NCBI GenBank assembly: GCA_964420555.1
Contig: CAYQTT010000005.1
Coordinates: 232,326-296,325 of the forward strand
Direction of reading: 5' to 3'
Source of the DNA: an uncultured Lentimicrobiaceae bacterium
GTDB lineage: Bacteria; Bacteroidota; Bacteroidia; Bacteroidales; UBA4417
Length of the DNA: 64,000 bases
Part shown: piece by piece, positions 4,410 to 57,608 of the stretch
How positions within the stretch are numbered: the stretch's first letter is position 1
Layout: each line of letters opens with the position of its first letter
Notes under the pieces: model-generated
What the model saw: only the letters and a program-made list of their open reading frames with translations
Told to the model about the DNA's origin: nothing
The model's database searches: none
Translations under genes and position numbers: made by a program

Positions 4410-4556
4410 GCACTTCAGAATGGGGTAAACTACATCTTGCATCATGTCGGGAATCAGGAAATTTATATTCAGGAATATTAAAAGACGCGATGAATTCGAG
4501 TCTTTATAACTATTTGAATTATAAAATCTTAATTTCCTATTTAATACAATTAGAAC

Positions 4557-45874: not shown

Positions 45875-47323
45875 TCACCGTTCAATCCACATTACCGAAT
45901 TGCCGGTTCCAAACTCATTTTCTTCCCATAGTTCATTGGTGGGATCTATCATCCAGCGACCATCAACTATTAATTTATAGGTGTATTTACCTGGTTTCAG
46001 GTTTACTGGAAATACCCAGATCCCATTTTCTTTGTACATACGGTAACTGTCCTCGCTCCAGCCATTGAAGCTTCCTGTTACAATCACCGTTTTGGCATCT
46101 CCAAACTTTGCGAGCGAAAAGGTATAGTTTGGTTTAAAAGTAATGCACGAATTCATGAAATCGCCCGAGCCTGTTGTATGCGGATTAGCAGGATCGGTAA
46201 TCCATTTGCCGTCAACAATAAATTTGTATTCATAATTTCCGGCATCGAGCACATAGGGCAGTTCCCAACCGTAGTCGGTTTTATTCATCACAAGTTCATT
46301 GTGGCTCCAAGCGTTAAAACTTCCTGATAGGATTACTTTCTCTGCTGATTGAAATCCTTGAAGCTTAAAAATTAAAGTGTCACCAATTCCCATAAATGAG
46401 TTCATATTGCCGTAAGCATCCAGCCTGATGTTGCTGTTTTCAGGATCAGCCATCCATTCGCCGTCAACAATAAACTTATAGGCATAAGTCCCTTTGCTGA
46501 GGTAAACAGGCAGGATCCAGCCACCTGCAACAGGTTTCATGCGGAGTTCTTTCTTTTGCCAGCCGTTAAAACTTCCGGATACATAAACCTTTCGGGCATC
46601 AGTAAATCCTTTTAACCGGAATTCGTGGTTATAACAATACAAAATTGAGTTATACCCGTTTTCACCATCTGATTCTTTCAACATGTTTTCAGGATCATGG
46701 ATCCACCTGCCATCGGTTATGTATTTATACAAATAGCGGCCCGGCTCAAGTTTCAGGCTTATCTCCCATCCGGAACCGGTTTTTTGCATCGGATGTTGCA
46801 TGGTACTCCAGTTGTTGAACGTACCCGAAAGATATACCTGTCTTTTGTTCTGAAATCCCGGAAGGAAAAAGTGTGTAATGCTGTCAGCAAATTGTATGGT
46901 TGGTTCCTTTGCAAATTGGTTGACTCCAAATTTCTTTGGCGGAAACAACATTGGTTTCAATACAAACGGCTTAACAAACCAGTTGTCATCAATAAGCAAA
47001 ACATCATTAGGGCTGTAATCATCCTGGCCAGGCAAAGGCTTGGATATTTCGACTATGTTTTCGTTAATGCGGCTGATATCCCAGGTTACGCTGTCGGCTG
47101 TAAAAGATGATATTCCGGTAAAAGCCTGAGCAACTAAAGAACTATCGAGACTGAAAAGTGAAATGGTTTCTTTCTTTGTTTTATCCGACCATCGTTTATC
47201 GAGTTGAAAATAAATGCGGTTGTTGTTGATGTAACATACGTTCTCTGTCTTATGCTGAGCTACACTGTATGTGGCAGCAGTTGTAATGAAAATCAGAAGA
47301 AAAATGATCATGCGGAGTTTCAT
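45875..47323 (-). CDS. Secreted protein with four tandem CBM48 / AMPK-beta-type glycogen-binding (E-set) domains
   Basis: 482 aa with a signal peptide. Four repeats of about 83 aa follow the pattern SG(S/T)FNxW....M.....GW.....L..G.Y.YK(F/L)IVDG.W..DP.N. Confidence 0.7.
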   Translation of the reverse strand: MKLRMIIFLLIFITTAATYSVAQHKTENVCYINNNRIYFQLDKRWSDKTKKETISLFSLDSSLVAQAFTGISSFTADSVTWDISRINENIVEISKPLPGQDDYSPNDVLLIDDNWFVKPFVLKPMLFPPKKFGVNQFAKEPTIQFADSITHFFLPGFQNKRQVYLSGTFNNWSTMQHPMQKTGSGWEISLKLEPGRYLYKYITDGRWIHDPENMLKESDGENGYNSILYCYNHEFRLKGFTDARKVYVSGSFNGWQKKELRMKPVAGGWILPVYLSKGTYAYKFIVDGEWMADPENSNIRLDAYGNMNSFMGIGDTLIFKLQGFQSAEKVILSGSFNAWSHNELVMNKTDYGWELPYVLDAGNYEYKFIVDGKWITDPANPHTTGSGDFMNSCITFKPNYTFSLAKFGDAKTVIVTGSFNGWSEDSYRMYKENGIWVFPVNLKPGKYTYKLIVDGRWMIDPTNELWEENEFGTGNSVMWIER

Positions 47324-48330
47324 TTCTTTTCTCCTTTCTTTATGCTGAAACTAAATTCGTTTTTACCAAAATTAAAACAAAAGACACCTTTTTGCCAGAA
47401 ATCGTAACCAAGCATTCCATCAATCGAGCAGCCGTATGCTTCGCTCATGGCATCGAGATTTGTAATAATTGTTTCCATGTTTCCAAACTGGTGGCTTCCC
47501 GATTCGAATTCTTTCATGGTACCGGATAAAACTTCAACAGACTGCGAACTGGCTCCGCCCATATTTGAGCGTCGGTTGATCTGGATTGTATTCAGTACCT
47601 TTTTTGAAACACTGCTACTGATCACATTGGTTTCGGCACCTGTATCGAGGCAAAAATTCAGGGTTTTATCCCCGATATTTCCTTTTACCAGCAATATGTT
47701 ATTTCGTTGTTCCAGTTTTTGAAAATATTCGAATTTCATTTCGGTGTTTTTCTGGCTCAGCAGGTTACCTTGTTTATCAATCCGGGTCAGTTGCAACTCA
47801 TTGCTATTGGCATCGAATATAACTTCGAAGTTATCGATCATGTTAATGCCGAAAAGTCCGAGAATTTTAACTCCTCGCCGGTTTTCGATATGGCCAAGGT
47901 CGGCTAAATCAGCGGCAACATCTTCATAATAGAGGTCCGAAATATCGATTCGTTTAACTATAATCCGGAGCACTTTATCGAATGAACCTGTTATTCCGCT
48001 TCCGCCGGATTTGGTGGTAGTAGCATATTTTCTGAAATAGGTTCTGTTCAGTACCAGCCCGGATGCGCCGGTGTCGAAAATCAGGTTCCCAGCCTGGCCA
48101 TCGATCCTGGCTTCGATAAGGAACAAGCGCCCGGCACGCTTCAGAGGAATAGTTAAGGACTGGAAATCTCCTAAGGGTTCATCGCTCATCTGAGGGAAAT
48201 GCAATATTGACTCATTTGCCGTAACCTGAAAAGAATCATTTATCGGAGGAATATCGGCACATACCCTATTGCTCAGGAGAAAAAGTGCGGGCGAAAGCAC
48301 CAAGATTACATTGAAAAAAATCCTATTCAT
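47320..48330 (-). CDS. Secreted two-lobed retropepsin-like aspartic protease
   Basis: 336 aa with a signal peptide. Two D-T-G-A motifs sit in one chain (LIFDTGASGLVLN and FCLDTGAETNVIS). It overlaps the downstream gene by 4 nt (ATGA). Confidence 0.65.
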   Translation of the reverse strand: MNRIFFNVILVLSPALFLLSNRVCADIPPINDSFQVTANESILHFPQMSDEPLGDFQSLTIPLKRAGRLFLIEARIDGQAGNLIFDTGASGLVLNRTYFRKYATTTKSGGSGITGSFDKVLRIIVKRIDISDLYYEDVAADLADLGHIENRRGVKILGLFGINMIDNFEVIFDANSNELQLTRIDKQGNLLSQKNTEMKFEYFQKLEQRNNILLVKGNIGDKTLNFCLDTGAETNVISSSVSKKVLNTIQINRRSNMGGASSQSVEVLSGTMKEFESGSHQFGNMETIITNLDAMSEAYGCSIDGMLGYDFWQKGVFCFNFGKNEFSFSIKKGEKK

Positions 48331-48686
48331 GTAGATATCAATTTACTAAGCATGGAAATCTATACGAAATTAATCAAATGTTTTTCAGTTCGAAGTTTTA
48401 CATAAAAAAGTTTAATCCTTTCAGACTACATATAATAAAGTTGTCAGTCCAAGAATATGGATCGAATTTTCTTTAAATAAGACTTTAGTGCGAATCCGGA
48501 AAGGTTAAAATGAGGTTAATACTAACTTTCAATACAACAATAATCCCATCAAGCTAAATTGAAACCTCATGTCCAGCTCGATAAGCAAACGATTAATTGA
48601 AAATTCTCAATTAACAGGTTTCTCAATTATCATTAATATGGAACCGCCGAAGTTTAACCTTCACTAAAAAAAAATATTTTGATGCT

Positions 48687-49334
48687 TTAATCATTTTTCG
48701 TGTAGGATATTCTTCTGGAAGCTTTTCGCATTAAAGTATTAATCAAATCCTCTGTACTACTGCCAAGTGATCCTGAAACTGACTTATTATAGTTAATAAG
48801 AAGTTCTCCATCACTGCCATTATGGATAAACAAATTAAGTACAGCTTTATTTGTGCTTCCGTAAAAGCCTACTAATAGCGCCAGTGCAACACTTGCTCCT
48901 TCTGACATTGGTTTTGTAGTTTCAAATTTACCTGAAATAACAGCATCCACTCCCAAAAGTCTGGCATAATCTGCCGGAGTATAAGTAGCCATATTTTCAT
49001 ATGTAATTCCGTTCTGTTTAAGAAGAGCGTTTGTAGTAGTAGGATCCTGAATTTTTACTGTCAGTTTTCCACTTTCCTGTCTCCGTAAAAACCAGGCATA
49101 CATTGCAAACTGAATGTTTTCACCTTCAGCAACTTCTAGTCTTTGTATTTGTTCGACACTCATATTTTTCATTTCCTTCGGACGCAGCTTTACAGTTGCT
49201 TTAAACGGAACTATTGCAATTAGCTTATGGTCTTTGGTAATCTTATCAAAATTGGGATGTTCATACAGATTTGTTTGAGAAAATACAACAATTGTAAGTA
49301 GAAAGATAATGGATGTAAGTAGTAGTTTTTTCAT
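48687..49334 (-). CDS. Hypothetical secreted protein
   Basis: 215 aa with a signal peptide. AT-rich, with no diagnostic motifs. Confidence 0.5.
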   Translation of the reverse strand: MKKLLLTSIIFLLTIVVFSQTNLYEHPNFDKITKDHKLIAIVPFKATVKLRPKEMKNMSVEQIQRLEVAEGENIQFAMYAWFLRRQESGKLTVKIQDPTTTNALLKQNGITYENMATYTPADYARLLGVDAVISGKFETTKPMSEGASVALALLVGFYGSTNKAVLNLFIHNGSDGELLINYNKSVSGSLGSSTEDLINTLMRKASRRISYTKND

Positions 49335-49627
49335 AAAAAAGGTTTTGAATTTTGGTTTATATTTATTGATGCATTTGAACTTAACAACTATTAATTAAAT
49401 CAAGAATCCTTAACTATTAAAACAATTCTGCGATTAATGACTTTTTGCCTTCAAAGATATAGAGAAGAGTTGAAATTTAAAATATTCATATAATAAAAAA
49501 ATCCGCCTGGATGAAACTGAGATTTTTTAATCAATTTTTAATAATGATCCGGATAAATTCCTATCAATCAATTTTACGTTAGGTAAGTTTGTTGCTGCTC
49601 AAAAATAGTTCTCAGCTGAAAATATTA

Positions 49628-50095
49628 TTACTTATCTTCCTCAACATTGTTTGAATTAATCCATCGGATAAATAATTTATATCCAAGTGACATAACAATA
49701 GCGCCGGTAAACAGACCAATAAACCCTGAAAAGATGAACCCGCCAATTACACCGATAAATATTACCAACATAGGCACCGGTGCACCCTGTCCAAGCAGAA
49801 TGGGTTTAAGTACATTGTCGGACAAGCCAGCCAACAAAAGCAATACAGTCCACAAGATTGCCGGCAATACTTCCTTCACAGCAAACAAATAAACTATGAT
49901 AGGCAGAGTTACAATGAACAATGGAATCTGTAGTATGCCCTAAATAAATACAATCAAAGTCCATATCCCTGCATACGGAACACCTGCCAGCAGTAATACA
50001 ATTCCGTTCAATACAATTCTTAAGGCTACATCTATTGAAACTTCCCTGATGCTTTACTCCCAAGATAATTCAATCCATTTTCAAAGTTATATTCA
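49628..50095 (-). pseudogene. AI-2E (PerM/TqsA) family transporter remnant: C-terminal third only, with an in-frame TAG and a probable frameshift
   Basis: The 97-aa ORF (…NVLKPILLGQGAPVPMLVIFIGVIGG…) continues upstream in frame as …LLLAGVPYAGIWTLIVFI*GILQIPLF. The TAG is at 49940-49942. Further upstream the similarity moves to another frame and then stops. About 200 N-terminal codons are absent. Confidence 0.6.
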
Positions 50096-50110
50096 GTAAC
50101 ATGCGCTCAC

Positions 50111-50140
50111 AAAAAAAAAGACTGTCAGTATCGACAGCCT
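50111..50140 (-). terminator. Rho-independent terminator
   Basis: GGCTGTC / GACAGTC stem of 7 bp followed by U9 on the minus strand, 40 nt after the stop at 50180. Confidence 0.65.
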
Positions 50141-50179
50141 TTTTGTAAAAGTGGCATCAGCCTGATTAATTGCGGAAGT

Positions 50180-50842
50180 TTATGTAATTTCTACTGATCC
50201 GGCATATACCGTGTTTGAAACCGCTTCGCGGGCATTGGATGAAGTTTTCCCGTCAAGTGAAACAAGGAATAGCAGCACTTCGGCAGTACGACTGCTCCAC
50301 TCTGCAGGAAGGTTCAGTATTACTGTTGCCTGGTTTCGTGATGCGCAGCCCGGGAAGGAAAGTACTTCCCCGGAAGCTTGGTCAGTAAGACTAACAATCA
50401 ACTGGTCGCTTTCGCTGGCATATGCTGCCTGAGTGTTATCAGCCCAGTTTAAGGTTACCGAAGCAGGCGCATCAGAAAGAACAGCAACTCCGGTGAGTGT
50501 TGCTAAGTTTCCCATGCTGATCCTTACTTTGCTGAAATCAATGCTCAGATCGGGGAATTCGCCGGCAATTGCATTTGCCAGGTTATACGACATGGCGGCA
50601 TTGCTGCTCGTCATATCTTTTGCATATGCTTTGAAGCCTATGCGGATTAAATTACGGTGCGCCTGGTTAAAGCGCCCGACCAATCCGAAACGTGCCCGCT
50701 GTTTTTGCTGATTTTCGGAATTGGGGTTCGATACTACGGCAGGGCGGATTCTCATCACTTCCTTGCCTTTCCAGTTTGAGCCGACCACGTTTCCGATCCG
50801 GCCCTGGAATCCTCCAAGGATTCCTTTTTTAAAGGTTGCCAT
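50180..50842 (-). CDS. Hypothetical protein resembling the Bacteroidota DUF6266 family
   Basis: 220 aa from the ATG at 50842 (MATFKKGILGGFQGRIGNVVGSNWKGKEVMRIRP...). No signal peptide or TM helix. The family assignment is from memory of the N-terminal pattern only. Confidence 0.4.
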   Translation of the reverse strand: MATFKKGILGGFQGRIGNVVGSNWKGKEVMRIRPAVVSNPNSENQQKQRARFGLVGRFNQAHRNLIRIGFKAYAKDMTSSNAAMSYNLANAIAGEFPDLSIDFSKVRISMGNLATLTGVAVLSDAPASVTLNWADNTQAAYASESDQLIVSLTDQASGEVLSFPGCASRNQATVILNLPAEWSSRTAEVLLFLVSLDGKTSSNAREAVSNTVYAGSVEIT

Positions 50843-50965
50843 TAGGCATGTCAATTTTTACCTTGCAGCAACATTGCCGCAATTGCATCATGTATTACAA
50901 TAATCCTGCAACCAGCTTTTTTTCGAAATTATAGATGTATATTGCTTTCAACTGCATAATGCTGT

Positions 50966-50994
50966 CACTGACACAGATTTTGTGACACTGACAC
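50966..50994. promoter_or_regulatory. Direct 9-mer repeat CACTGACAC x2 at exactly 20-nt spacing
   Basis: Copies at 50966-50974 and 50986-50994, in the divergent spacer between the DUF6266-like gene and the first HTH gene. An embedded TGTCAC/GTGACA inverted pair is present. Confidence 0.35.
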
Positions 50995-51390
50995 CTTAGT
51001 GTAATATACGGCAAACGGTTACTACTCCAGTCATAATGTCAGTCAGTGGCTGAAGACAGACCAATCAATAACTCAGATAGGTTTTTAATAGGAATCATGA
51101 TATAGGTATGATATTTCATTTTCGGGCAAATAACATTAAGTATCGGATAAAAATAATGAAAATATAGGTTGGATAGCTATGTCGAAAATGCATCATTCGA
51201 TTTCTGAAACAGGTAAAATATTTTCATCATTTACCACGATTATTTGAGTAAAAATTAGAAAAAGTAAACCTACAGAATAAGTGACCGAAAACAGCATTTC
51301 TGAATGGCAAAAAAAATAATTTCCCAAAAAATCAAATATCAATTTTGAAGAATCCAGCATTTACAGGGCTTGCAGCGATTTTGGGAGAAA

Positions 51391-51431
51391 TGTCCTTTAC
51401 TAACGGATTTTTTTTATATTAATTAGCGGGT
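51391..51431 (+). promoter_or_regulatory. Conserved upstream block TGTCCTTT-N17-ATATTAATTAGCGGGT (copy 1)
   Basis: The same two blocks occur with identical 25-nt register at 52244-52284, at a similar distance to the ATG (74 vs 72 nt). TTGCAGCG lies further upstream in both copies. Confidence 0.5.
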
Positions 51432-51489
51432 GTTTAATCTGGCCTAAAATCGATTTTTCAAATCGGGCGGGCTGCAAAAAAGTACACCC

Positions 51490-51885
51490 ATGAACAATAA
51501 CAAATCAGTACAGGAAACGCTGAATTCAGTTCTTTCATCTGACGCAATTTATGAACTCTGCCAACTTGATCAACTTATCCGGACAAATCCGGAGCATCAA
51601 ATTTATTCAAGGCTCAGAGAAATGATTTCGGATAGCGAAGTTTTGACTTTGGTGTTCAAGTTTGCACAAAATCATCCTTCAGGGAAACGGAAATTTATTT
51701 TTGCCGGTTATCTCAGCAGTAAGGAAGTTATGAATGCCCTGGGCGTTTCAAAACGAAAGTTAGCCGAATGGAGAAATGCAGGTTTACTTCCGGCTAAAGT
51801 ATTTGGGAATACATTTTATTATTCTGTCAACGACCTTGTAATAATGTTGGAGCGGTATTACACAGGTAAAGCTGCAGGAATTTAA
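51490..51885 (+). CDS. Excisionase/MerR-type helix-turn-helix (HTH_17-like) protein with a unique N-terminal half
   Basis: 131 aa. The C-terminal part is YLSSKEVMNALGVSKRKLAEWRNAGLLPAKVFGNTFYYSVNDLVIMLER. Confidence 0.6.
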   Translation: MNNNKSVQETLNSVLSSDAIYELCQLDQLIRTNPEHQIYSRLREMISDSEVLTLVFKFAQNHPSGKRKFIFAGYLSSKEVMNALGVSKRKLAEWRNAGLLPAKVFGNTFYYSVNDLVIMLERYYTGKAAGI

Positions 51886-52243
51886 ATCCATTTTGTTGAA
51901 CGGAAATAAACCGGACAAATAGGCAGTTTTAAATGTAAGTATTCGGAAATCTCATTGAATTCTGTTGTTAACAGTTCTAAATGGGATTTTCTGATACCGG
52001 ATTCAAATTTGTAATAGTATGTGATTTATGCTGATTCCCAGAATACTGTTTTTATTAAGAAAAACAGACTACAAGGTAAGAATATAATTATTAATATCAA
52101 CCCATATCCGGAGTTAGTTTTTAAAATCAGAAACGTCAAAGTTTACTAGCATTTTCATTTACACAATGGCATTGTGCGCATATGTAAATGGTCGTAAATT
52201 GTTATTTGATTGATTTGCAGCGCAATATACTACTCAAAATATT

Positions 52244-52284
52244 TGTCCTTTTTATTTGAAAATTTTGCATATTAATTAGCAGGT
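52244..52284 (+). promoter_or_regulatory. Conserved upstream block TGTCCTTT-N17-ATATTAATTAGCAGGT (copy 2)
   Basis: See copy 1 at 51391-51431. Confidence 0.5.
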
Positions 52285-52340
52285 CTTTTTTGACAAAAGA
52301 TGATGGGTTTTTCCATCGGACATTTTAAAAAAACCTGAAC

Positions 52341-52736
52341 ATGACAAACCAAGATTTTAAGCCAGAATTTCACTCAACACCTGACACTGCATCAGTAAAT
52401 GATAACTTGTCAGCTTTCCTGCTCGAATACCGGGATACTGTAGTACCTGATGCCCAAAACGGTAATGATAAACCGGCTAAAGTGGCCGGGGAGATTAGCA
52501 GGCTAAATGAAATTCTGCTTGAGCTTAGGACTCAACAGGAGCAGTCGGTAATGCCCGGCTGGCTCACAAGCGAACAAGTACAAAGTTTTCTTAACTTAAA
52601 AGAGCGTTCACTCCGGACGTTGCGAAAATCAGGCAAACTTCCCAGCTCGCAAGTCGGTCAAAAGTTCTTTTACCGAAAAGAGGATGTAGATTTGCTTCTT
52701 AACGAAGCTGCACTTCATAAGCAATCGGGAGATTAG
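52341..52736 (+). CDS. Excisionase/MerR-type helix-turn-helix (HTH_17-like) protein, paralogous in its C-terminal half to 51490-51885
   Basis: 131 aa. The C-terminal part is WLTSEQVQSFLNLKERSLRTLRKSGKLPSSQVGQKFFYRKEDVDLLLNE. Confidence 0.6.
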   Translation: MTNQDFKPEFHSTPDTASVNDNLSAFLLEYRDTVVPDAQNGNDKPAKVAGEISRLNEILLELRTQQEQSVMPGWLTSEQVQSFLNLKERSLRTLRKSGKLPSSQVGQKFFYRKEDVDLLLNEAALHKQSGD

Positions 52737-52847
52737 AGTAAATTACGTTAATTCATTCTTCAGGCAAGATTGAGGTGGCCGTCATCGTGGTATACTTTAT
52801 ACGGATACTCCGGTTATTTGTGCGCCCCTGTTTAATTAAAAATCGGA

Positions 52848-52897
52848 CAGCTTCAGCTCCGTATCAGCTCCGTATCAAGTCCGTATCAAGTCCGAAG
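52848..52897. repeat. 11-nt tandem repeat x4 (CAGCTCCGTAT x2, CAAGTCCGTAT, CAAGTCCGAAG)
   Basis: Read directly from the sequence, about 110 nt after the second HTH gene. Confidence 0.75.
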
Positions 52898-53056
52898 AAA
52901 AGGATCCGGGTTTTATCCGGAATATAGTGTTGGTTAAGGGGCAACCCAGACTTAGTTTCTTATACTGACAGTAGTCTCAAATCACCCGCCATTACCAGGG
53001 TGCTCAGTCCATTTGCTTAATTCAATTATTTACTATCTTGCATCAAAATTATTCCC

Positions 53057-55834
53057 ATGGCTTTAGGCTGGAACGAAGTTAAAGAACGTGCGGTACATTT
53101 CTCGAAAGAATGGGAAAATGCCTTTAATGAAGAAGCAGATTCGAAGCAGTTTCTTATTGAATTTTTTAATGTATTCGGCATCAGTAACCGCAGGGTAGCC
53201 ACATTCGAGCATAGAGTAAAAAAACTCGGCGATGCCGATGGGTATATCGACCTGCTTTGGAAAGGCACCATGCTGGTTGAAATGAAAAGTCGCGGTAAAA
53301 ATCTTGATAAAGCGTATCAACAATCCATAGATTATACACACTGGTTGAAAGAAGTTGAGTTGCCTAAATATATATTAGTTTCCGACTTCGCCAATTTCCG
53401 GCTTTACGACCTCGACGAAAACCAACGGTACGATTTCGCCCTTGCCGACCTGGTAAGCCATGTGCAATTGTTTGGTTTTATTGCCGGATATCAAAAACGC
53501 ACCTACAAAGAGGAAGATCCTGTAAATATTGAAGCGGCTTACCATATGGGTATTCTGCACGATGCACTGAAAGAGGCCGGATACACGGGCCGCAACCTCG
53601 AAGTATATTTAGTGCGCCTGTTGTTCTGCCTTTTTGCCGATGATACCGGGATATTTGAACGCAGTATTTTTATTGATTACCTGCAACAGAAAACCAACAC
53701 CGATGGCTCGGACCTGGGTATGCATCTCGCTCAATTGTTCCAGGTGTTGAATACTCCGAATGGAATGCGCCAGAAAACGCTGGATGAAAGCCTGGCAGCT
53801 TTTCCTTACATCAACGGGCATTTATTTGAGCAACAATTGCCTTTTGCTTCGTTTAACAGCAGGATGCGTTCAACTTTGATGCAATGCTCCACGCTCGACT
53901 GGAATAAAATTTCGCCTGCCATATTCGGCAGTATGTTCCAAAGTGTGATGAATGAAACTGAACGCCGTAACCTTGGCGCACATTATACTTCGGAGAAAAA
54001 TATACTGAAACTGATAAAGCCGCTTTTCCTCGATACGCTTTGGCAGGAATTTGCAGTGGCCAAAACCAGTTCCGGTAAACTAAAAGCGTTTCATAAAAAG
54101 ATAGCTTCCTTACGTTTTCTTGACCCGGCTTGCGGTTGCGGCAACTTTTTAGTAATTACCTACCGCGAGCTGCGGCTTCTCGAACTATCCATTTTAAAAG
54201 AGTTGCAGCGCGGACAAAGGGTTTCGGATATTTCGGCACTGGTGCTTTGCGATGTGGATCGCTTTTACGGTATTGAATACGAAGAATTTCCGGCACAGAT
54301 AGCACAAGTTGCGTTATGGCTTACCGACCACCAGTTGAATATGCAGGTTTCGGCTGAGTTTGGCGAATATTTTGTGCGCCTGCCGCTGGTAAAATCGGCT
54401 AAGATTACGCATGGCAATGCGTTGCGAACCGACTGGGGTAGCCTGGTGGAGCCTTTGCCATGGGAAAACTCAACAAGGTTCGATTATATTTTGGGAAATC
54501 CTCCATTTGTGGGACATCATTTTCAAGATGCTTCACAAAAAAGTGATATGAATTTAGTGTTTACTAAGGTAAATGGAGCTGGAGTACTTGATTACGTTTC
54601 CGCATGGTACATAAAAGCTGCCATCTACCTTCAAGAAAACAATATCGAAGAAAACAGTCTGGACCTTAAAACATGTGTAGCCTTTGTTTCGACTAATTCA
54701 ATCGCACAAGGTGAACAGGTAGGTTTATTATGGACTGAATTATTTAATAGGTATAAATTAAAAATACATTTTGCGCACCACACCTTCAAATGGGGTAACG
54801 AAGCTCGCGCAAATGCTGCCGTACATGTTGTAATTATAGGTTTTTCGAATTTCAATATTGCTGAAAAGCGAATTTTTGAATACGAGAATATTAGTGGCGA
54901 ACCACATGAATTGAAAGTAAAAAATATTAATCCTTATCTGTTTGAAGGGCGAGACTTATATGTTATTAATCGTAAAGAGCCTTTATGTAATGTCCCAAAG
55001 ATGATTTGGGGTAATAAGCCAACTGATGGAGGTAATTTTATTTTTAATACTCAGCAAGATTATTTAGACTTCATTGCGAAAGAACCGCTCGCAGAAAAGT
55101 GGATTCATCCATACTTTGGAGGAGAAGATTTTTTGCACAATAAAATCCGAAAATGTTTATGGTTAAGAGATATCAAACCTGATGAATTGAATTTATTGCC
55201 TCATGTTTTAAAAAGAATTGAACAAGTCAAAATAATGCGTCTGAATAGCAAAGCAGAAGCAACACGTAAAAAATCAGAAACGCCATATTTATTTGCTCAG
55301 GTTTCTCAACCCAATTCACAGTTTTTAGCTATTCCAGAAGTTTCTTCAGAGCGCAGGAAGTAAATACCTATAGCTTTTTTCAGTAAAGAATTTATTGCTA
55401 GTAATACTGTTCAGTTAATTCCAAATGCAAACATTTTTCATTTTGGAATTGTCACATCATTGATGCACATGACATGGGTTAAATATGTTTGTGGTAGGCT
55501 TGAGAGCCGTTATCGATATTCAAATTCTATCGTCTACAACAACTTCCCCTGGCCCGAAAACCCAACGGATAAGCAAAAGGAAGCAATTGAAACGGCGGCG
55601 CAAAAGGTATTGGATGCGCGGGCGGAGTTTCCCGGAAGCAGCCTGGCCGATTTGTACAGCCCGCTAACCATGCCGCCCGCATTGGTAAAAGCGCATAACG
55701 AACTGGATAAAGCGGTTGATATGGCGTACCGTCCGCAGGCATTTGCAAATGAAACAAAACGGATTGAGTTTTTATTTGAGTTGTATGATAAATATACGGC
55801 GGGGTTGTTTGTGGCGCAGAAGAAGAAGCGATGA
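53057..55834 (+). pseudogene. MmeI-family type IIL restriction-modification enzyme (fused R-M-S) interrupted by one in-frame TAA
   Basis: N-terminal D...EXK nuclease region (DLLWKGTMLVEMKSRG). Methyltransferase motif I is FLDPACGCGNFL and motif IV is ILGNPPFVG. The sequence is collinear with MmeI as I recall it. TAA at 55361-55363 sits where the family has an aromatic residue (EVSSERRK*IPIAFF). The 124-aa ORF at 55460-55834 is in the same frame and carries the conserved RLESRYRYS..VYNNFPWP block. Confidence 0.8.
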
Positions 55835-55898
55835 ACTCGTGATTTGTGACTCAAAGGCACCTATTCACTGATAAAACCTCACCCGATATCCCAAAAAA

Positions 55899-56936
55899 AT
55901 GAAAATATTAAAAATACTATTGTTGCTAACTTTTTTGCTGGGATGCCAAAAGGAAGAAATTCCTGAATGCAATGATAGTATTGGACTTTTTACCTTTTCG
56001 GACTATCCAATCGGGACAGCAATTGATGTGAATGAATTGGATTCTGACCCATTATATAAATCTATAGCTATAAAGCAGTTCAATAGTATTACACCAGAAA
56101 ATATTTTCAAGGCTGAATATATTCATCCTGAGCAACTCTTTTTTAATTGGTCACAGGCTGATAGTCTGGTATCTTTTTGCGAGCAGAATAACAAAAGATT
56201 ATACGGACACACTTTGATATGGCACAAACAACTACCGCAATGGATCATTGGATTTCAGGGAAATTCCAGCGATTGGGAACAATTGATGAAAGTGCATATT
56301 CAGACTATCGTTACACATTTTAATAACAAGGTAGCAGCATGGGAGGTTGTGAATGAAGCTTTTAATGAGGATGGAACACTAAGAAACAATATCTGGAAAC
56401 AAAATATCGGGTCCGGATATATTGAAAAAGCCTTTATGTTTGCTCATGAAGCAGATCCTGACGCTTTATTGTTTTACAATGATTACAATTTAGAAATGAA
56501 TCCAACCAAGCGACACAGCGTAATATCATTATTGAACAATATACGAAACAGGGGTGTGAGAGTGGACGGCATAGGAGTACAAATGCATATCAGTACTTCA
56601 TATCCTGAACCATCGCAAATTGCTGGCGCTTTTCAGGAAATTGCAGCAAATGATTTCAAAGTACATATTACGGAATTGGATATTTCTATTAATCCATACA
56701 ATCAAAATATTGAACCGAGTGAAAAGTTATTGACTGAACAGGCAAATTTACTGGGGAGTATCGTATTTAACTATAATAAGATTCCAGATCAATACCAATA
56801 CGGAATAACTTTTTGGGGCATTAGTGATAAAAACAGCTGGATTCGTAATTTTTACAATCGCGAAGATTATCCTTTGTTGTACGATGATAATTATTTGCCT
56901 AAACCATGTTACTGCAAGTTAATTGAAACCTTATGA
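55899..56936 (+). CDS. GH10 endo-1,4-beta-xylanase lipoprotein
   Basis: Lipobox LLGC. The acid/base Glu context is WEVVNEAF and the nucleophile Glu context is ITELDI. Confidence 0.8.
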   Translation: MKILKILLLLTFLLGCQKEEIPECNDSIGLFTFSDYPIGTAIDVNELDSDPLYKSIAIKQFNSITPENIFKAEYIHPEQLFFNWSQADSLVSFCEQNNKRLYGHTLIWHKQLPQWIIGFQGNSSDWEQLMKVHIQTIVTHFNNKVAAWEVVNEAFNEDGTLRNNIWKQNIGSGYIEKAFMFAHEADPDALLFYNDYNLEMNPTKRHSVISLLNNIRNRGVRVDGIGVQMHISTSYPEPSQIAGAFQEIAANDFKVHITELDISINPYNQNIEPSEKLLTEQANLLGSIVFNYNKIPDQYQYGITFWGISDKNSWIRNFYNREDYPLLYDDNYLPKPCYCKLIETL

Positions 56937-57400
56937 AGAAATTTATAGCAACACTCGTTTGTGTAACAATTCAGGCAATGCTTTTTTCACAAGTAGCAAT
57001 CAGCTATTTGCCTTTTCAATCGATATTGTCAATTTCAACAAATACTGAAAAGTTATTATTTGTTGATTATAAAATTGAAACAAACAATTATATTTCAAAT
57101 CTTAACATGGAATTTTCGCCAAAATTCAATTTCAAACGAACGGAATGGATAAATTACTACGTCGGGGCAGGAGTAAGTTTTAACCCTGCAAATTTATATG
57201 CTGACCTGCCAATCACTAACGGGTACTTTATTGATTTTGGCATAAGAGCAAAACCTTTAATTAAAATCAGATCTCTTCAAATAGTATTTGAAATTTCCCC
57301 CTACGTTAATAAAGAGATTGCGAGCGGAAATATCAGAACCAGAATAGGGCTTGCCTGGAATTTTACAAGTAAACCTGGTGTAAACTCAACTGATGAATAA
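56933..57400 (+). CDS. Hypothetical small beta-rich (outer-membrane-like) protein
   Basis: 155 aa with a signal peptide and alternating hydrophobic pattern. It overlaps the GH10 gene by 4 nt. Confidence 0.45.
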   Translation: MKKFIATLVCVTIQAMLFSQVAISYLPFQSILSISTNTEKLLFVDYKIETNNYISNLNMEFSPKFNFKRTEWINYYVGAGVSFNPANLYADLPITNGYFIDFGIRAKPLIKIRSLQIVFEISPYVNKEIASGNIRTRIGLAWNFTSKPGVNSTDE

Positions 57401-57608
57401 CAAAGCCAGCGATAGGTTTCAATACTAAAACAAATTAGTCGGGGCAGCGATTTGAGGGTCATAGCTGATATAGAGGTTATGAAGTCCTTGTTTATCATAG
57501 CAACCTTTCCGCTTCAAACAGGGCGGTAACTTATCATCCCGTCAAACGTCAGCAACTGATATTTTTCACAATGTCGCAGTTTTACAATTCTGACCTACTT
57601 TTCGGGCA

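Follow-up and report, generated by a model that had tools for sequence, protein, structure and literature searches.

A stand-alone MmeI-family restriction-modification gene of an uncultured Lentimicrobiaceae bacterium, probably inactivated by a single recent point mutation

Introduction

Among described systems, the one that most resembles the gene reported here is MmeI of Methylophilus methylotrophus, a type IIL restriction-modification (RM) enzyme of 919 amino acids (aa) with a structure in PDB (5HR4). Its target recognition domain (TRD) has two parts, TRD-N (residues 621-745), which reads positions 1-2 of the recognition site, and TRD-C (746-825), which reads positions 3-6, and these are followed by a helical bundle (826-919) (Callahan et al., 2016; PMC4833311). 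The base contacts assigned in MmeI are N773 at position 3, A774 and R810 at position 4, L805 at position 5, and E806 and R808 at position 6 (PMC4833311). Here, we describe an interrupted gene of this family at positions 53057-55834 of a stretch of 64,000 nucleotides (nt) from an uncultured Lentimicrobiaceae bacterium of the Bacteroidota (contig CAYQTT010000005.1, positions 232,326 to 296,325), which in its full length is referred to as the window.

Disrupted genes have been met in this family before. Three of 20 members studied, NmeAIII, DraRI and ApyPI, carried comparable lesions in the sequenced strains, namely a TAG at codon 32 of NmeAIII, a TAA at codon 841 of DraRI and a frameshift after R886 of ApyPI (Morgan et al., 2009; PMC2731913). 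All three were inactive as found when expressed and active once repaired, which took one base in the two nonsense cases and two bases for the frameshift, and since repaired DraRI cut Deinococcus DNA, the host DNA was unmethylated and methylation was off in vivo (PMC2731913). Two views of such alleles were discussed, drift and a reserve that is easily switched on again (PMC2731913). The gene described here is like these three in being otherwise undecayed and in carrying a single lesion, but its lesion lies elsewhere (codon 769, inside TRD-C), and its host is an uncultured Bacteroidota population.

Results

One gene with a single internal stop codon

The locus is divided into an upstream open reading frame (ORF) of 768 aa (53057-55363) and a downstream ORF of 124 aa (TTG at 55460 to TGA at 55834), both in the same frame, with 32 sense codons between the TAA of the first and the TTG of the second. 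In the ORF listing and the translation, the TAA at 55361-55363 was the sole interruption between them. The gene and its parts are as follows.

53057..55834, plus strand: complete MmeI-family (type IIL/IIG) RM gene, one frame with 925 sense codons, one internal TAA and a terminal TGA
53087..53575, plus strand: MmeI_N, N-terminal PD-(D/E)XK nuclease, aa 11-173 (Pfam E 6e-43)
53594..53827, plus strand: MmeI_hel, helical spacer, aa 180-257 (Pfam E 8e-25)
54059..54877, plus strand: MmeI_Mtase, gamma-class N6-adenine methyltransferase, aa 335-607 (Pfam E 2e-89)
54947..55360, plus strand: MmeI_TRD, the part kept before the stop, aa 631-768, profile 2-140 (Pfam and 5HR4 alignment)
55361..55363, plus strand: premature TAA, codon 769, equivalent of MmeI Phe759, 13 residues into TRD-C
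55364..55558, plus strand: MmeI_TRD, the part lost after the stop, aa 770-834, profile 142-206 (Pfam and 5HR4 alignment)
55568..55810, plus strand: MmeI_C, C-terminal helical bundle, aa 838-918, lost after the stop (Pfam E 1e-34)

The Pfam MmeI_TRD profile matched positions 2-140 before the stop (E 1e-37) and positions 142-206 after it (E 8e-26), so that the TAA falls exactly at profile position 141 with no insertion or deletion, and the two pieces are contiguous to a degree beyond chance. The PADLOC profile REase_MTase_IIG gave 965 bits and the same picture, aligning over positions 3-763 and then 765-909. These data show a single MmeI-family gene that is interrupted by one nonsense codon. An earlier note on this DNA had already read the two ORFs as one gene in a common frame, with the TAA as its only lesion, and both statements are borne out by the translation, the continuity of the TRD match and the alignments; further frameshifts, deletions or an excess of missense changes were looked for and none was found. 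Its count of 32 intervening codons is also right, but the 33-letter string given for them includes the TTG codon as Leu, which is a trivial discrepancy.

Membership of the MmeI family

A phmmer search of PDB returned a single match, MmeI (5HR4; 1078 bits), with residues 1-917 of the query aligned to MmeI 1-906. All five MmeI Pfam domains were present, in order and far above their gathering scores, and the query shares with MmeI this five-domain architecture and its length (925 versus 919 aa), as well as the nuclease residues, motif I, NPPF and the FPWP end of the TRD. In the 5HR4 alignment, the nuclease residues D65 (53249-53251) and E75-M-K77 (53279-53287) correspond to MmeI D70, E80 and K82 and are intact, as are the conserved nuclease-domain residues E25 and E51. 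The roles of these residues (D...ExK, E25, E51) are known from earlier work, in which YeeA-type members without them showed no cleavage (PMC4833311, PMC2731913). Methyltransferase motif I, FLDPACGCGNFL, lies at aa 354-365 (54116-54151) and motif IV, NPPF, at aa 481-484 (54497-54508), and thus every catalytic signature that the earlier note had called intact upstream of the stop was located in the translation and alignments. The premature TAA at the Phe759 equivalent is found in the query and not in MmeI. In domain order, nuclease residues and motifs I and IV the gene is that of an MmeI-family enzyme, and the frame of ~920 aa expected of one is interrupted at codon 769; it is a disrupted member, in that the gene belongs to the family and its predicted product is truncated.

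The gamma-class methyltransferase core is shared with BREX PglX and MADS mad2, and both were considered. The NCBIfam BREX_1 and BREX_6 MTaseX models scored 19-25 bits against cut-offs of 500 and 900, and no adjacent BREX brx or pgl genes were found among the neighbours, so PglX was rejected. PADLOC mad2 matched query aa 24-488 with 188 bits, about one fifth of the REase_MTase_IIG score of 965, the mad1 model gave 22 bits in a neighbouring helix-turn-helix (HTH) gene, and the other mad models had no matches among the eight neighbouring proteins scanned, and MADS was likewise rejected. The low PglX and mad2 scores indicate an MmeI-type RM gene rather than a component of a multi-gene defence system. 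No RM partner (methyltransferase or specificity subunit) occurs among the neighbours, and the gene therefore stands alone.

The codon at the stop column

In the 119 best intact homologues, the column occupied by the stop holds Tyr in 112, Phe in 5 and Ile in 2, and the codon aligned to the TAA in 83 related loci is TAT in 71, TAC in 10 and TTT in 2. Since the column is dominated by Tyr, encoded by TAT or TAC, one base change accounts for the TAA, and on this comparison it is explained by a single T-to-A (or C-to-A) transversion, most likely from an ancestral Tyr codon TAT. This agrees with the aromatic residue and the one-base change from TAY that had been expected at this position. The change is a substitution in non-repetitive sequence, free of repeats and homopolymers.

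The stop codon in separate assemblies

The exact 768-aa protein is on record on three contigs. Logan assemblies SRR13723393 (10,350 nt) and SRR13723394 (3,350 nt) were 100% identical to the window, as was a 2,178-nt contig of SRR13723397, TAA included, and the stop is therefore present in all four assemblies when the NCBI contig is counted. Because identical DNA was recovered in three runs and the lesion is a substitution in non-repetitive sequence, a random sequencing or assembly error is very unlikely. Reading of TAA as a sense codon was also considered and rejected, since TAA is the normal and commonest terminator in the window, where it closes 20 of 37 long ORFs, and since the window yielded no tRNA gene.

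Absence of further decay

At alignment columns conserved in at least 95% of homologues, the query deviates at only two, G96W and M427L. When the 119 intact homologues were put through the same leave-one-out test, the median was 3 deviations, and 91 of the 119 deviated at least as often as the query. We also calculated the ratio of nonsynonymous to synonymous substitution (dN/dS) by the Nei-Gojobori method against the closest gene at the DNA level (protein P0003, locus L084). In the 5' arm (aa 1-450), dN/dS was 0.035 with a synonymous divergence (dS) of 0.38, and in the 3' arm downstream of the stop (aa 836-925) it was 0.107 with a dS of 0.32; the same 3' arm compared between two intact homologues gave 0.062. 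By these substitution ratios, purifying selection has acted on the region beyond the stop throughout essentially all of the history that can be measured, and the nonsense mutation is young relative to the divergence from P0003. Hidden decay was thus rejected by both the conserved-column test and the regional dN/dS values, and the suggestion that the lesion is recent because nothing else has decayed gains support from both.

Broken alleles among relatives

A scan of the GTDB species-representative genomes yielded 550 relatives, the best match having 74% identity, and the best 80 of the 550 loci were retained. Among these 80, 71 were full-length and uninterrupted, and four (L012, L069, L073, L076) gave incomplete alignments, mostly cut by a contig end. 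Four others carried one in-frame TAA in an otherwise full-length alignment, and one was scrambled near its 3' end:

L003, nt 9648: TAA at query aa 554
L039, nt 8781: TAA at query aa 261
L046, nt 9318: TAA at query aa 440
L065, nt 8985: TAA at query aa 329
L067, nt 4456-4470: scrambled near the 3' end

Five of the best 80 loci are therefore broken alleles, ~6% of the family sample, and single-nonsense alleles are common in the MmeI family. The stops in relatives are scattered (aa 261, 329, 440 and 554), with none at 769, and on this ground we rejected a conserved split-gene architecture.

Stand-alone ORFs of 280-400 aa consisting of a TRD and C-terminal region were numerous on long contigs (P0134, P0157, P0171, P0182, P0225), and they include one in the 6.3-Mb Rudanella lutea genome. 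These may be further split or 5'-truncated MmeI-family genes.

Predicted consequence of the truncation

An intact enzyme would act as one polypeptide, binding an asymmetric site of 6-7 bp through the TRD and an adjoining methyltransferase loop, methylating one adenine of the site on one strand only, and cutting unmodified DNA ~20/18 nt downstream with its N-terminal PD-ExK nuclease. With a stop at codon 769, everything from the nuclease through the spacer and methyltransferase to TRD-N would be retained in the product. Beyond the stop lie 156 residues, which comprise the remainder of the TRD (aa 770-834) and MmeI_C (aa 838-918). The contact residues N783, T784, L815, E816, R818 and R820, equivalent to MmeI N773, A774, L805, E806, R808 and R810, are lost with them, and those kept are the equivalents W651/K654 (MmeI Y642/K645), A733 (A723), A747/Q748 (F737/Y738) and E761/V762 (E751/T752). 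This mapping was checked by confirming that the 13 MmeI contact residues of PMC4833311 (Y642, K645, A723, F737, Y738, E751, T752, N773, A774, L805, E806, R808 and R810) fall on the named amino acids in the 5HR4 alignment. The earlier note was correct that the missing 156 residues belong to a C-terminal region that aids recognition, but this understated the loss, which takes in six base-contact residues for positions 3-6. Because restriction and methylation depend on one TRD, both activities would be lost together, which would be a safe way for the cell to lose the system, and loss of both in the 768-aa product is likely.

Predicted specificity of the recognition domain

We predicted the specificity of the repaired enzyme from the residue-to-base correlations of PMC4833311 and PMC2731914, as an inference only. 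The query has the same residues as MmeI for reading site positions 3, 5 and 6, and it also shares the arginine for position 4 (MmeI Arg810). In contrast, the position-1 residues are A747/Q748 in the query and F737/Y738 in MmeI, W651 replaces MmeI Y642, T784 replaces A774, and the minor-groove loop reads H487-H488-F489 in place of K-S-K. On the strength of these differences, the query site would differ from the MmeI site TCCRAC, at least at position 1. There, the query pairs A733 with Q748, as reported for enzymes that read A:T. At position 2, K654 mostly goes with C:G, a weak call since its partner W651 is without precedent. E761/N783 at position 3 are as in MmeI and point to C, and R820 at position 4 points to a purine, which with T784 in place of A774 could be read as R or as G. 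Position 5 would be the methylated A, and E816/R818 at position 6 are a pair that exclusively specifies C. Tentatively, the predicted recognition site is roughly A(C)C(R/G)AC. A search with the TRD only (54857-55546 of the window, aa 601-830) for an orthologue of the same specificity among 5.8 billion proteins found none above 60-64% identity.

The TRD also stands apart from the rest of the gene in its divergence. The closest proteins (P0002-P0011, metagenomic Bacteroidota MmeI-family proteins of 924-930 aa) are all intact, unlike the query, and share with it 88-92% aa identity over the nuclease, spacer and methyltransferase and 86-93% over the C-terminal bundle, but 40-51% in the TRD before the stop and 47-73% after it. 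At the nucleotide level, identity to the P0003 gene (L084 8001-10793) is 91-96% over aa 51-450 and 851-925 and falls in the following segment, which has a sharp 3' edge near 55555.

54932..55555, plus strand: divergent recognition cassette, 44-69% identity to P0003 versus 87-100% on either side, with a gradual 5' edge from ~54392

The dS against P0003 is ~0.35 in the arms and 1.5 in the middle. The GC content is 44-53% in the arms and 31-39% in the TRD, compared with 40% for the window, and this pattern is common to all four genes compared. The distribution of divergence suggests that the recognition module was exchanged like a cassette, within arms that are conserved.

Genomic neighbourhood

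The RM gene is preceded by two paralogous HTH_17 genes and a DUF6266 gene and followed by a GH10 xylanase gene. The upstream features in the window are listed below.

51490-51885 and 52341-52736: paralogous HTH_17 genes, 131 aa each, just upstream of the RM gene
50180-50854, minus strand: DUF6266 gene, GC near 50%, upstream of the RM gene
47320-48330, minus strand: 336-aa protein with Asp_protease_2 (retropepsin-like), also PADLOC candidate family PDC-M08B (E 2.5e-9)

The closest homologues of the RM gene are solitary genes, each among different housekeeping neighbours, and homology to the P0003 locus starts 23 nt before the ATG and stops at the stop codon. Since homology ends at the gene edges and the homologues are solitary, the gene appears to move independently. 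The region around 48300-57500 was searched for island boundaries and att-like repeats, without a convincing candidate.

A 26-nt sequence precedes each HTH_17 gene (51410-51435 and 52263-52288; 85% identical) and may be a shared promoter or operator, and one of the two genes has a weak PADLOC mad1 match. DUF6266 homologues adjoin MmeI-family genes in L022 (3324-3959) and L025 (199-840), from Flavisolibacter and Ginsengibacter metagenome-assembled genomes, which hints at occasional co-transfer. The window itself is chromosomal DNA and includes genes for a Dpp7 dipeptidyl-peptidase, a type IX secretion system (T9SS)-type protein, TnaA, GlmS and PBP2, and these genes, like the hosts of the RM gene's homologues, point to Bacteroidota.

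Discussion

The reading we prefer, with a probability of roughly 85%, is that this is a stand-alone MmeI-family type IIL RM gene on a Bacteroidota chromosome that has been inactivated by a single recent point mutation. Several points weigh against it or narrow it. The accession numbers of the three Logan runs lie close together, and the runs probably come from a single community, so that their agreement excludes an assembly error without showing how far the allele has spread. Assemblies are mute on minority alleles, and an intact minority allele may be present in the population. The case for an inactive 768-aa product is built on structure and precedent. Finally, the closest relative is distant (dS ~0.3 in the arms), and "recent" has meaning only relative to that divergence.

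The alternative that fares best, although its chance is small, is that the site varies within the population, with TAA as the majority form and intact TAT or TAC revertants beside it, so that OFF and ON forms of the gene coexist in the community. The gene is otherwise pristine and one base from function, single-nonsense alleles recur in the family, and a standby role of this kind was proposed for the MmeI family by Morgan et al. (2009; PMC2731913). However, all four assemblies carry the TAA, and no repeat or homopolymer is present at the site to make reversion more frequent. When JGI metagenome contigs were scanned for the flanks joined by TAN, there were 0 matches, a result that taken alone is uninformative. 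In a more elaborate version, the recognition cassette recently recombined between the arms, and the nonsense codon is a rescue or standby mutation that silences a new specificity for which the host was not yet methylated; we regard this as speculative and slightly less likely still. If it were true, the population would carry a type IIL gene in an OFF form that a single base change can reverse, and the site of its enzyme, predicted as above, may be undescribed.

It is considerably less probable that the gene still works, whether by reassembly of its pieces (768 aa plus 121-124 aa re-initiated at 55460 or 55469), by read-through of the TAA, or in a new role. Gene callers do predict a downstream ORF of 121 aa, and both pieces are undecayed, but a recent mutation explains the undecayed state equally well. 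The frame is broken within the alpha/beta subdomain TRD-C (MmeI 746-825) rather than at a domain boundary, and the scattered positions of stops in the family argue against a conserved split architecture. DraRI, which is truncated even further downstream, was inactive both in vivo and in vitro (PMC2731913), and read-through is opposed by the use of TAA as the normal terminator and by the absence of any tRNA gene found in the window.

That the gene is really intact and the stop an error has next to no chance of being right, even though this is a metagenome-type assembly and the outcome hinges on a single base, because three separate Logan runs and the NCBI contig are identical over 2.2-10.3 kb, TAA included, and the sequencing error that the earlier note allowed for is very unlikely. 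Equally remote is an old pseudogene under erosion, for which the two substitutions at highly conserved columns might speak, since they are fewer than the median of intact homologues, no frameshifts or deletions are present, and dN/dS is 0.03-0.11 in both arms, also downstream of the stop.

With inactivation by a recent point mutation as the preferred explanation, the biological weight of the case is small. Both the lesion type and the enzyme family are already described, the case is ordinary, and it adds a further example of a restriction system lost by point mutation, a pattern documented for the MmeI family. For annotation, the two ORFs should be joined as one pseudogene, rather than entered as a "DNA methyltransferase" and a "hypothetical protein".

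Novelty is confined to the divergent TRD, which is distinct from every sequence in the 5.8-billion-protein collection. Morgan and Luyten have reportedly emphasised the point-mutation route to new specificity, and exchange of a TRD cassette would add to that route. Since the TRD is distinct, repair of the TAA to TAT could give a type IIL enzyme with perhaps a new specificity, for which the Morgan/Callahan residue code gives a testable prediction. What interest remains attaches to this distinct recognition domain and to a possible polymorphism of the OFF allele within the population.

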